Shown piece after piece: positions 7,227 through 32,000 of a DNA stretch of 32,000 nt. The notes under the pieces were generated by a model that saw only the letters and a list, made by a program, of their open reading frames with translations, ran no database searches and had not been told where the DNA came from. Each line of letters begins with the position of its first letter. Within the stretch, counting starts at the first letter, position 1. The DNA lies in the NCBI GenBank assembly GCA_000387965.1, contig APJZ01000002.1, positions 120,001 to 152,000 on the forward strand, written 5' to 3'. This DNA is from Candidatus Nanobsidianus stetteri. GTDB lineage: Archaea; Nanobdellota; Nanobdellia; Nanobdellales; Nanobdellaceae. Both the position numbers and the translations under genes were made by a program.

Positions 7227-9433
7227 TTTATATATATTGTTAATTGATCTTTATATAATGTATTTACCATTGTTGTATTTAAAACATATATATTAAAGTT
7301 TTCTGAATATGTATAATTATTTACAATATTCCCTTGATATATTTTCCCATTAAATATTGTTATGTTTAAATTATTAAAATAAAAATATGCCTTTTGATAA
7401 TCTTTAGATAAATTAATTAAATTATTTAGATTTATTACATTTATTGGTTTAATATAATTTATTTCAATATATGGAATTTGAGTAGAAAATGCTAAATATA
7501 ATGCAGTCTGTTTATCTAAATTTGGATTTGAATATAGATAGAAGTAATAATTTTGATAATTATAATTATCATTTAATGTTGCATTTAAGAAATAAAGATT
7601 ATTATAATTATCAAAAGAGGAAACATATGAAATATTTATTATAGGATTATAATTTGTATATAATATTGAATCTAGATAGTATGTGTTGCATGTTGTTATT
7701 TGTATACAACTCCCTATCATGCATGTAGTTGTTGTTGTGCATATTTGGTATCTTCTCATTAATGTTATTCCATTTTCATAATAATAGTAGAGATATCCAT
7801 TATATAAATTGTTTAGATTAAATATTTTGTTATAAATATTTGTTGAGTCTAAAACAAAACCATAATTAGATTGTGAAGTATTCCAAAATATCATATTATT
7901 TGAATTATAGTATTTTTCTGTATTAAATACATACCAATAAGTATTAGAAAATATTATATCCTTTATAGATAGATTTGTAGAATTATATAGATATAATAAA
8001 GCTAATGAATCATTATAAACATAAGGAGTTAAATTATAAGACTCATATTCAGAAGTATAAAAAGAAAATCCAATAAACAGATATAAATTATATATATTTA
8101 AATAACTTGATGGAATAGAATAATAGTTATTACCCATATCTGTTAAATAAGAAAAATATGCTAAGTTATTATTATATATTGTAAAGTTGTTATTAGAATT
8201 AGACGATCCTAGATCATTATATTGAGAAAAATCATAAGTTAAATTTGGACCCATAATAAATTTATAATTATAAGTAAAATTTGGTTGATAAATTACTTTT
8301 ATATTTGGCATTACATTATATGGAATTAAATTTATATAATATGCATAAATATTTTGACCATATATTTGTAAATTATCATTATTGTCATTATTATAACAAT
8401 AATAAACATATAAAGAATTTGGATTTCCAAAAGATGGCAGATTTATATTACAATTATCTCCTAATTGTATATAAGCATTATAATAACCATTATTTTGAAT
8501 ATTAAATAATATTAAATAATTACCTTTTGGAATACTATTTTTATAAGTAATTTCGAAGCTATTATCTTGTGTACTATAAATATGATCTCCATAGTTTATA
8601 TATGAAATAGTTATAGGAGTATTATTTGTCCAATATTGACTAAACTGTTGATAATTTTGATAACTAAAATTATCATATACTGGAAATATTTCTTTTCCAT
8701 CAACTGAATAACTATTTATCCCATTTATTGGAGAAATATTTAATATTACATAACCATATGGAGATATATTTAAATCAACCCAAATTCCATAAGCATTATT
8801 ATTAAAACTATTGCAATTTAAATTATTATTTAAATAACAAAAATAATAATTATTTCCATTTAAATCTTTTACAGATAGATTATAACCATTCTGTAACCAA
8901 TAAAAAATATCAGTGGAAGTTATAAATACAGGATAATTAATTAATTGTTGATTTGATGGATTTGAAACATTAATTAAAACATATTGAGGTTGATTATTAC
9001 TTATATTAAAATTTAGAAAATTTGCATAAAAGAATATTCCAACATTTGGATCTAGATATGTATTATTTGTATTATTTAATACTCCAGAATAATTTGTTAA
9101 AAAGGATATATTTAATGGATAATAAATTGGAAATGATGTACAAAAATCGTTATATGCATTTTCAAGAATTAAATTATAATATATTTGTGAATTTTGTAAG
9201 CATTGATAATACATAGATAATGGTATTGAAACATTTAATGATAATAAATAATATTTGCTCTCAATTGAATTCAATATATTATTTATATAATTATTATAAT
9301 AATTTATTTGATTATAATTATTGATATTGTTTATTATGTATCCTCTATACATTGCTAAATAGAATGTTAAAAATGAAATAAAAATTACTATTGCAATTAC
9401 ACCTTCTATTTCCTTTACTATCCCTCTAACCAT
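7223..9433 (-). CDS. Large Asn/Tyr-rich putative surface protein with N-terminal prepilin-like or anchor segment
   Basis: 736 aa. MVRG then IVKEIEGVIAIVIFISFLTFYLAMY. The rest is dominated by N and Y with very many N-x-S/T sequons. Its start overlaps the ATPase stop by 16 nt. Confidence 0.5.
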   Translation of the reverse strand: MVRGIVKEIEGVIAIVIFISFLTFYLAMYRGYIINNINNYNQINYYNNYINNILNSIESKYYLLSLNVSIPLSMYYQCLQNSQIYYNLILENAYNDFCTSFPIYYPLNISFLTNYSGVLNNTNNTYLDPNVGIFFYANFLNFNISNNQPQYVLINVSNPSNQQLINYPVFITSTDIFYWLQNGYNLSVKDLNGNNYYFCYLNNNLNCNSFNNNAYGIWVDLNISPYGYVILNISPINGINSYSVDGKEIFPVYDNFSYQNYQQFSQYWTNNTPITISYINYGDHIYSTQDNSFEITYKNSIPKGNYLILFNIQNNGYYNAYIQLGDNCNINLPSFGNPNSLYVYYCYNNDNNDNLQIYGQNIYAYYINLIPYNVMPNIKVIYQPNFTYNYKFIMGPNLTYDFSQYNDLGSSNSNNNFTIYNNNLAYFSYLTDMGNNYYSIPSSYLNIYNLYLFIGFSFYTSEYESYNLTPYVYNDSLALLYLYNSTNLSIKDIIFSNTYWYVFNTEKYYNSNNMIFWNTSQSNYGFVLDSTNIYNKIFNLNNLYNGYLYYYYENGITLMRRYQICTTTTTCMIGSCIQITTCNTYYLDSILYTNYNPIINISYVSSFDNYNNLYFLNATLNDNYNYQNYYFYLYSNPNLDKQTALYLAFSTQIPYIEINYIKPINVINLNNLINLSKDYQKAYFYFNNLNITIFNGKIYQGNIVNNYTYSENFNIYVLNTTMVNTLYKDQLTIYIK

Positions 9434-12645: not shown

Positions 12646-12694
12646 ATGAAGAAATCGATGTCGACTGAAAGATGATGAAAAGAGGGTATTCAGA
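12646..12694 (+). ncRNA. Candidate box C/D sRNA (49 nt)
   Basis: ATGAAGA(C)-aatcgatgtcga(12)-CTGA(D')-aag-ATGATGA(C')-aaagagggtatt(12)-CAGA(D). Spacing is exactly that of archaeal C/D sRNAs. The outer boxes are non-consensus (U5 to A in C, U2 to A in D). Lies in the convergent gap between the GTPase and dys genes. Confidence 0.5.
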
Positions 12695-24177: not shown

Positions 24178-24570
24178 ATGATGACAGCTCCATATGTAAA
24201 ATGGCCTGAAGATGTATTGAATACATTTATACAAAATTACGAAGCAAAAGTATATGAATTATTTGAGAGAGCAAAACAAAGTGGAAAAATTAGAAAGGGA
24301 GTAAATGAAACTACAAAGGCAATAGATAGAGGACAGGCAAAATTGGTAGCAATTGCATTAGATGTAGATCCTCCAGAAATAGTAATGCATATACCAGCAT
24401 TATGTGAAGAAAAAGGAGTAACTTATGTATATGTTTCTTCAAAACAAAAATTGGGACAATCTTGTGGTATAAATACACAAGCATCTGCGGCTGCTATAAT
24501 AGAACCTGGTGAAGGAAAACAAATTATGGATGAAATAGTAAAGGCACTTAGTACATTGTTAAAGAAGTAA
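24178..24570 (+). CDS. rpl7ae: Ribosomal protein L7Ae (K-turn binding protein)
   Basis: 130 aa; GVNETTKAIDRGQAKLVAIALDVDPPEIVMHIPALCEEKGVTYVYV. Confidence 0.9.
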   Translation: MMTAPYVKWPEDVLNTFIQNYEAKVYELFERAKQSGKIRKGVNETTKAIDRGQAKLVAIALDVDPPEIVMHIPALCEEKGVTYVYVSSKQKLGQSCGINTQASAAAIIEPGEGKQIMDEIVKALSTLLKK

Positions 24571-30585: not shown

Positions 30586-31614
30586 TTATACATTAGGTTC
30601 AACATTTTTTATTATAGGGTCTATATCCATTCCTTCTCTTCTATTTTTTATTAATACAATTCTTGAATCAACATCTTCTTTAAATATTTCATAACCAGGC
30701 AATTTTTCTACTAATCCTTTTGCAAAATTTCTTATATCTTCCATACTTGGAACATTTTCAAATTTTAACTTTAATCTTGAATATCCTAAGAATGAATAAG
30801 ATTTTACCTCTACAAAATGAGGATTATATATTTCAATTAATTTAGCCCATTCATCAAAATATTTAGGATCATCATTTACTCCTTTAATTAATGTTATTCT
30901 TGCAACTCTCCTTGTTTTCATTTTTGATGCAATTTCTAATGATTTTATAAACCTCTCCCAATAATCTTTGTGTATAGGAACAGATATTTTTTTATACATT
31001 TCCTTATTTGGAGCTGTAAATGATATATATAATTGTGTTGGTAATGCATTCTTTTCAATTAATCTTTCTAATGCTTCTGGAACCTGTCCAGTTGTTACTA
31101 TAAATATTGATTTTATCCATGGCCAATTTTTCTTAATATATAATATACTCTCTGCAACATATGGATATAATAATGGTTCTCCAGATAATGAAAATGTAAC
31201 ATGTGTCGGTTTATCAATAAATTTATCTAATAGTTCTTTATTTGCCTTTGGATTTCCATAATATCCGATTAATAATTTCTTTCTTAATTCTCTTAATTTC
31301 TCCATTGTTTCTTCAGGTTTATCTACTAGATCTTCTGGTAATATATTATAGTAAGGTTCAAATTTTGTATTTGGTCTCCAGCAAAATATACATCTATTTG
31401 TACACCAGACAACAGATTGTGTCATTTCCATACATCCTGCAGTATCTATTCCATAGAATTTATTTTTATAACATGTTCTTCCATTTATAATTGATTCTTT
31501 TGTCCAATGACAAATTTCAACAGCAGAATGATTGTAAATTCCATATCCAGCTTTCTCTAATTGTTTTGAAGTTTTTAAATCATGTATCTTCCATTTTTCA
31601 ATATTTTCATTCAT
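30586..31614 (-). CDS. taw1: Radical SAM tRNA 4-demethylwyosine synthase (Taw1/TYW1)
   Basis: 342 aa. The auxiliary Cys cluster is CHW...CYKNKFYGIDTAGCME and the radical SAM motif is CTNRCIFCW. Confidence 0.8.
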   Translation of the reverse strand: MNENIEKWKIHDLKTSKQLEKAGYGIYNHSAVEICHWTKESIINGRTCYKNKFYGIDTAGCMEMTQSVVWCTNRCIFCWRPNTKFEPYYNILPEDLVDKPEETMEKLRELRKKLLIGYYGNPKANKELLDKFIDKPTHVTFSLSGEPLLYPYVAESILYIKKNWPWIKSIFIVTTGQVPEALERLIEKNALPTQLYISFTAPNKEMYKKISVPIHKDYWERFIKSLEIASKMKTRRVARITLIKGVNDDPKYFDEWAKLIEIYNPHFVEVKSYSFLGYSRLKLKFENVPSMEDIRNFAKGLVEKLPGYEIFKEDVDSRIVLIKNRREGMDIDPIIKNVEPNV

Positions 31615-31649
31615 TGAATAGTATATTATATAACATGGTTATAAATCTA

Positions 31650-31698
31650 TCAGTGAACTTGGCATTCATCATTTATCAGCTGAGAAGGCTTTCTTCAC
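31650..31698 (-). ncRNA. Candidate box C/D sRNA (49 nt)
   Basis: Minus strand reads GTGAAGA(C)-aagccttctcag(12)-CTGA(D')-taa-ATGATGA(C')-atgccaagttca(12)-CTGA(D). A possible 4-bp terminal stem ATCT/AGAT lies in the flanks. Same architecture as the 12646 candidate. Overlaps the last codons and stop of the upstream CDS. Confidence 0.6.
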
Positions 31699-32000
31699 CC
31701 AGATAATTATATATCTTAAAAGATTTTATTTCATAATTTTTAAAATATTTCTTAAGTAACTCTCCAAATTTTTCTTTATTTAAGTTTTCTCCACTACACC
31801 ATGCAGCATCTATATCTATATAAATCCCATCATCTTCAGTATAACTACTTATTACTATATGGGATGTTGATAAAATTCCAGTAAATGTTATATCCTTATT
31901 TCCCTCAAAATCTGCAGGAAATAGATAAATTTTATGATATAATAATTTACTATTTAAAATTTTTGCAAGATCGTTAGAAAATTCTCCAATAACATCTATA
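31676..32000 (-). CDS. speH: Pyruvoyl-dependent S-adenosylmethionine decarboxylase-like proenzyme (SpeH family), partial; 5' end beyond the right edge
   Basis: Open at nt 32000, so absent from the track. My translation is IDVIGEFSNDLAKILNSKLLYHKIYLFPADFEGNKDITFTGILSTSHIVISSYTEDDGIYIDIDAAWCSGENLNKEKF...YLGEESLLS, with the stop at 31676..31678. It resembles the ESHxxxHTxPE...DxxTCG pattern loosely. Confidence 0.55.
   Translation of the reverse strand, partial: IDVIGEFSNDLAKILNSKLLYHKIYLFPADFEGNKDITFTGILSTSHIVISSYTEDDGIYIDIDAAWCSGENLNKEKFGELLKKYFKNYEIKSFKIYNYLGEESLLS

Follow-up and report, generated by a model that had tools for sequence, protein, structure and literature searches.

Genomic context and layout of the element

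The window analyzed here, a 32,000-nucleotide stretch of DNA, is part of a 593,789 bp assembly (7 contigs, ~24% GC) of a Nanopusillus-type nanoarchaeon. The Nanopusillaceae are thermophilic ectosymbiotic nanoarchaea with genomes of ~0.6 Mb. Towards the end of the window, two minus-strand genes, an AdoMetDC-like open reading frame (ORF) and taw1, lie on either side of a candidate box C/D sRNA that overlaps the end of the former (Table 1). The distance from the ORF stop to the taw1 ATG at position 31614 is the 61 nt given in the initial annotation of this DNA, and the D box of the candidate lies 35 nt from the same ATG. The TATA-box-like TTTATAA that follows the D box is retained in the Nanopusillus, YN1 and Nanobdella orthologues and is probably the taw1 promoter. 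No promoter of its own was identified for the sRNA, and TATA-like strings are ubiquitous at 24% GC.

Table 1. Features of the locus and of the encoded L7Ae gene, in window coordinates.
Feature	Position	Strand	Remarks
AdoMetDC-like ORF, 3' part	31676..32000	minus	full gene G000:C2:151676-152083 (L007:1617-2024), 135 aa
Candidate box C/D sRNA core	31650..31698	minus	49 nt, C box through D box
C box, GTGAAGA / GUGAAGA	31698-31692	minus	codes for part of the Gly-Glu-Glu of the ORF
D' guide, AAGCCTTCTCAG	31691-31680	minus	codes for ...ESLLS of the ORF
D' box, CTGA / CUGA	31679-31676	minus	UGA (31678-31676) is the stop of the AdoMetDC-like ORF
D'-C' loop, TAA / UAA	31675-31673	minus	3 nt
C' box, ATGATGA / AUGAUGA	31672-31666	minus	
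D guide, ATGCCAAGTTCA	31665-31654	minus	
D box, CTGA / CUGA	31653-31650	minus	
TTTATAA, TATA-box-like	31639..31645	minus	starts 4 nt past the D box; centred 28 nt before the taw1 ATG
taw1/TYW1 (4-demethylwyosine synthase)	30586..31614	minus	TIGR03972, 339.5 bits (cut-off 317.95); Radical_SAM and Wyosine_form domains
L7Ae gene, k-turn-binding core protein of box C/D RNPs	24247..24519 (G000:C2:144247-144519)	plus	PF01248, 102.3 bits

The product of the upstream ORF matches PF02675 weakly (28.3 bits, cut-off 25), with residues 31-121 aligned to profile positions 19-101 of 107, and scores 19.7 bits against TIGR03330 (cut-off 75.65). "AdoMetDC-like" would seem a fair name on this basis, and "SpeH" would go beyond the profile scores. 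The protein carries STSH where, we assume, classical AdoMetDC proenzymes have the self-cleaving ESH motif. Its close relatives are found in Candidatus Nanopusillus spp., including N. acidilobi 7A (CP010514.1), in Nanoarchaeota archaeon YN1 and in Nanobdella aerobiophila. Despite a score just over the Pfam cut-off, the gene is conserved beside taw1 throughout the Nanopusillaceae.

The minus-strand arrangement described in the initial annotation, with its boxes, 12-nt spacers and 3-nt loop, matches the DNA letter for letter at 31698-31650. The element has the features of archaeal C/D sRNAs: C and D boxes capable of forming a k-turn, D' and C' boxes on a short loop and guide spacers of about 12 nt. 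Its C box has A instead of U at position 5, and the k-turn G-A and G positions are intact. For the half motif RTGATGA-N12-CTGA, the chance expectation is 0.02 per window, which upholds the earlier statement that it should occur by chance well under once and lowers the value of 0.05 guessed at that time. The full double motif has a single match in the real window and none in 100 dinucleotide-preserving shuffles of it.

Folding revealed no intrinsic structure beyond that of shuffled sequences (z = -0.86) and no significant hairpin-plus-U-tract on the sRNA strand; the absence of a strong fold fits guides that need to stay accessible. A possible flanking terminal stem (AUCU...AGAU) was rejected, as it is not kept in relatives and folds no better than shuffles.

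An Rfam scan of the window at gathering thresholds returned two tRNAs and nothing else. In a permissive scan (601-nt search), the best archaeal match was the C/D family sR5 (RF01304; 25.3 bits, E-value 9e-4), followed by sR7, sR2, sR9 and snoPyro_CD, and the order and spacing of the boxes align end to end with these models. The covariance-model scan proposed as a check in the initial annotation thus finds a C/D family as best archaeal match, but all scores fall below gathering (25.3 against 40 for sR5 and 25.8 against 41 for SNORD74), so that the sRNA falls outside the curated Rfam families. Rfam C/D models are largely guide-specific, and the sub-threshold scores therefore argue against those families, not against the C/D class.

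C/D machinery and repertoire of the genome

Profile searches (PF01269, 285.5 bits; PF01798, 187.6 bits; PF01248) identified adjacent genes for fibrillarin and Nop5, as well as the gene for L7Ae listed in Table 1. A relaxed double-motif search retrieved at least 13 elements with the same layout genome-wide, and none in each of five block-shuffled genomes. Most of the 13 carry contiguous rRNA matches of 9-11 nt, and the present candidate is a typical member of this set.

A second C/D candidate lies within the window on the plus strand, at 12646-12694 (G000:C2:132646-132694), and reads ATGAAGA-12-CTGA-AAG-ATGATGA-12-CAGA; in the genome's own 23S rRNA, 10 nt near position 2554 match its D' guide and 8 nt near position 1990 match its D guide. 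Several of the terminal k-turns among the 13 candidates have A both at position 5 of the C box and at position 2 of the D box (GUGAAGA or AUGAAGA with CAGA).

Guide complementarity to 23S rRNA

Both guides were scanned against the genome's own 16S and 23S rRNA and 41 tRNAs. The D guide (AUGCCAAGUUCA) forms 10 contiguous Watson-Crick pairs with 23S positions 1775-1784 (GAACUUGGCA), and the D' guide (AAGCCUUCUCAG) forms 9 with positions 2096-2104 (UGAGAAGGC). For each of the guides put forward in the initial annotation, the search therefore yields a contiguous 23S match that includes the nucleotide opposite the fifth base upstream of the D or D' box. The predicted modifications are Cm1778, equivalent to E. 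coli C1670, for the D guide and Gm2099, equivalent to E. coli 2031, for the D' guide. In shuffles, a run at least this long covering the methylation position had a probability of 0.009-0.013 (D guide) or 0.04-0.07 (D' guide), and the 9-nt D' pairing in the window's own genome is, taken alone, weakly significant.

E. coli numbering was obtained by alignment to MG1655 rrlH, with the landmark GGAAAGACC at 2056 as a check. Another record, NZ_AP027616.1, was dropped as numbering reference because it is without the E. coli 23S landmark motifs. This 2.9-kb circular "E. coli plasmid" record (L078) is annotated as 23S rRNA and contains none of the six landmarks searched; it looks like a foreign or misassembled rRNA contig within the E. 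coli collection.

We take E. coli position 1670 to lie just inside helix 61, which closes domain IV at its base, and position 2031 to lie in the hairpin between domains IV and V; with these placements, both targets would flank domain IV. Helix 61 is among the conserved methylation hotspots of archaeal 23S rRNA (PMC4644070), and the block containing GGGAACUCGGCAAAUUGG is assigned guides of M. maripaludis, P. calidifontis, N. equitans (sR21), T. tenax and I. hospitalis (PMC4644070 supplement).

Conservation and guide/target covariation

The same locus carries the element in 13 further genomes of the family, for a total of 14 Nanopusillaceae (in N. acidilobi, CP010514.1, it lies at about 464.9 kb), and both of its guide spacers are exactly 12 nt long in all 14 orthologues. 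We extracted the 23S segments from each genome and tabulated the guide duplexes; both the D' guide and its target are known in 13 genomes, and the complementarity is kept in every one of them. Two positions change together with their targets. At position 6 of the D guide, seven Nanopusillus genomes have A opposite U and seven others (YN1, Nanobdella and the genomes G010, G014, G015, G017 and G018) have G opposite C, whereas guide position 5 and target in the D' duplex read C:G in 9 genomes, U:G in the 3 of genus g3 and U:A in Nanobdella; these counts go back to few independent changes in evolution, probably one or two at each position. Pairing extends over 11-12 nt for both guides in genus g3 and involves 12 of 12 positions of the D' guide. 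It is much better than in the window's own genome and removes most doubt about the D' target.

In an alignment of 12 orthologues, the UGA and GA of both C-type boxes, the guide cores, the D' and C' boxes and the k-turn G-A and G positions are invariant. Within the k-turn, variation is confined to C-box position 5 (A, G or U) and D-box position 2, which form a U-U pair in the consensus motif; the combinations A/U, G/U, A/A and U/U all occur among the orthologues. The D'-C' loop, 3-4 nt long, is free to vary (TAA, TGA, CGA, TTA, ACA, AGA, ACAG, TGGA, TTCT). Among the seven distinct Nanopusillus sequences, 5 of 49 columns are variable, namely position 5 of the C box, two bases in the loop and the bases at either end of the D guide, and none of them pairs or builds the k-turn core, the "free" class of variable positions having been assigned after the pairing was seen. 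An ungapped count of variability downstream of the element was inflated by an indel and set aside. The boxes, expected in the initial annotation to be conserved in related genomes, are thus kept in 14 genomes together with the guides, and guide and target show compensatory changes.

A pattern scan for the D' guide across 401 genomes of the class found matches in the window's own family only, with a pattern that left out GTGAGGA C boxes and consequently missed three known Nanopusillus copies. A pattern search for an equivalent of the D guide in N. equitans and four other genomes gave one match only, in genome G016 of genus g2 (L089:1460-1530; G016:C82, about 7400-7470), where the guide GTGCCGAGTTCC is directed against the same 23S segment. 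It directly follows an apparent C/D unit with CAGA boxes, with no AdoMetDC-like gene adjacent, and is possibly part of a tandem or composite sRNA.

Overlap with the upstream reading frame

The AdoMetDC-like ORF ends in ...NYLGEESLLS, and its last seven codons and its stop lie inside the sRNA. Two points of the initial annotation are borne out here: the first part of the sRNA encodes ...GEESLLS, and the TGA within the D' box, at 31678-31676, is the stop codon of the ORF. The point at which the ORF ends within the RNA differs among lineages. The stop is the UGA of the C box in G015, where there is no RNA-derived tail; the UGA of the D' box in Nanopusillus, YN1, G010 and Nanobdella, with the tails EESLLS, EESLLI and EEGFLD; and the first UGA of the C' box in G017 and G018, with the tails VMMAFSSEQ and VMMAFSSEE. 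In G014, which has a loop 1 nt longer, the stop is a TAG 1 nt past the D box, and a 17-codon tail runs through the whole RNA. All three reading frames are thereby used across the sRNA when genera are compared.

The geometry of the RNA bears directly on these endings. Spacers of 12 nt and a loop of 3 nt place the box UGAs at offsets 1, 4, 20, 27, 30 and 46, so that every frame is closed within a 12-3-12 RNA and any ORF entering it is ended. Frame 0 loses the C' UGAs when the loop has 4 nt, as in G014. In-frame closure by the box UGAs may explain the four ORF endings seen at this one locus.

The initial annotation had suggested that the C-terminal tail might exist only because of the sRNA, and that SpeH C-termini be compared among relatives. 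The comparison supports the suggestion: the tail differs in sequence and frame, or is absent, depending on where ORF and RNA meet, and the RNA is conserved throughout. Nucleotide conservation runs 26 nt beyond the stop codon, the reading frame differs among genera, and in G015 the D' guide is untranslated and its sequence unchanged. Some conservation of the first 23 nt could in principle stem from coding constraint, but nucleotides that are kept where the peptide is not, together with conservation past the stop, mark the peptide tail as a by-product of the RNA.

Comparison with known C/D sRNAs

The overlap had initially been regarded as unusual, and this was overrated. In the portion of the survey by Tripp et al. 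(2017) that is relayed by Breuer et al. (2021; PMC7994747), the majority of archaeal C/D sRNA genes share sequence with a neighboring ORF, and stop codons lie within the C/D boxes of about 25% of them; any of the four boxes may hold the stop, and nearly half of these stops are in the C box. Most C/D sRNAs of N. equitans likewise overlap mRNAs (Randau, 2012; PMC3491384). The present sRNA resembles such ORF-overlapping archaeal sRNAs in being a compact 49-nt dual guide whose spacers are 12 nt long, in lacking an obvious promoter and in holding the UGA of the upstream gene in one of its boxes. Three of the 13 C/D candidates in the genome (23%) carry the stop of their upstream ORF, close to the ~25% relayed from that survey (PMC7994747). 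Stops fall most often in the C box in the same excerpt, whereas here the D' box is used (PMC7994747), and in relatives of the present locus the stop lies in the C, D' or C' box or just past the D box. To judge from PMC7994747 and PMC3491384, neither this locus nor this lineage was covered by the published surveys of C/D overlap. The arrangement is established and common, and the present sRNA adds one more example.

The published sequences of N. equitans sR16 and sR21 occur verbatim in the order-level relative G020, which is N. equitans. sR21 (PMC4644070, Additional file 1) thus belongs to a member of the same taxonomic order, and its boxes are similar, AUGAAGA ... CUGA UUA GUGAAGA ... CAGA, and its D' guide GUUUGCCGAUUA pairs with AAUCGGCAAA, the 23S segment that is targeted by the present D guide; it also overlaps the 3' end of an ORF, of 433 aa. 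It differs in that the matching guide occupies the D' slot and predicts methylation of a C located 2 nt 3' of the present target nucleotide; its second guide shows no relationship to the present one, and it adjoins a different gene. Without synteny and with a different guide position, sR21 was rejected as an orthologue. At L090:1497-1545 (minus strand), the 433-aa ORF reads through the C box, D' guide and D' box of sR21 and ends at a TAG composed of loop nucleotides and the first base of the C' box, another variant of the overlap.

Discussion

With the double motif, its conservation, the guide/target complementarity and covariation and the RNP genes in hand, we consider the element very probably a functional dual-guide box C/D sRNA of this Nanopusillus-type nanoarchaeon. 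Co-transcription with the upstream gene followed by trimming has been proposed for most archaeal C/D sRNAs, and we infer the same route for the present RNA: it would most likely be made as the 3' end of the AdoMetDC-like mRNA and trimmed to the core protected within the RNP. In the assembled particle, both k-turns, C/D and C'/D', would be bound by L7Ae, with Nop5 and fibrillarin as the remaining proteins. Base pairing of the D guide with 23S 1775-1784 would target C1778 for 2'-O-methylation, and that of the D' guide with 2096-2104 would target G2099. On the mRNA, the C box and D' guide would be translated as ...GEESLLS until the UGA of the D' box ends translation, leaving the peptide tail as a passive by-product.

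A different division of labor within a genuine C/D sRNA would have the D guide alone direct methylation, with the D' guide mainly constrained by coding or acting as a non-methylating tether or chaperone. The 9-bp D' duplex in the window's own genome, with its shuffle probability of 0.04-0.07, leaves room for such a scheme, and overlap with a neighboring gene can yield orphan guides beside a useful second guide (PMC7994747). We nevertheless give it only a slim chance, as D' complementarity is kept in all 13 genomes with both sequences, extends to 12 of 12 pairs in genus g3, where the guide is read in another frame, and is accompanied in Nanobdella by a change of guide C to U where the target G has become A; moreover, the D' guide of G015 is untranslated yet unchanged. 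A genuine sRNA might instead have targets other than the predicted 23S sites, tRNAs for example, a reading to which we attach hardly any credence. A match of the D guide to tRNA-Thr(UGU), near position 33, has 9 Watson-Crick pairs and 1 G:U, but it is weaker and is broken by two central mismatches, whereas the matches to rRNA are uninterrupted, include the methylation position and covary across 14 genomes. The same 23S segment is also the predicted target of N. equitans sR21 and of guides in several other archaea (PMC4644070).

Very improbable, too, is the absence of any RNA gene, in which case a coding tail combined with a transcription signal, either a terminator of the upstream gene or an element of the taw1 promoter, would happen to resemble C/D boxes. 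Such a signal would suit a block situated between two same-strand genes and directly followed by TTTATAA, but it would account neither for the absence of the full motif from all shuffles nor for two spacers that match rRNA and covary with it, and the nucleotides stay unchanged among genera that differ in coding frame. Nor does the block show a significant fold or hairpin-plus-U-tract (z = -0.86), and the same layout recurs in the genome's set of 13 with different spacers.

Returning to the dual-guide sRNA, its overlap with the coding sequence might be more than tolerated. As the k-turn RNP would enclose the last seven codons and the stop, each transcript could be either fully translated or packaged into an sRNP, one outcome precluding the other, and assembly of the sRNP at the 3' end could in addition set the 3' boundary and the stability of the mRNA. 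We regard this as unlikely; were it true, the amount of AdoMetDC-like protein made, and perhaps also read-through into taw1, would be coupled to ribosome-modification capacity.

General C/D sRNA biology is unchanged by the present finding. For annotation, the last seven residues of the AdoMetDC-like protein should be taken to have no protein-level meaning, the end of the gene should be left as it is and not "corrected", and an annotation should be added for the RNA. The locus offers a clear case of a coding tail dictated by an overlapping RNA gene, in which one conserved RNA produces four protein endings in four lineages, and it adds a well-supported guide, predicted to act at two 23S sites, to the RNA repertoire of the Nanopusillaceae, which has been little studied.
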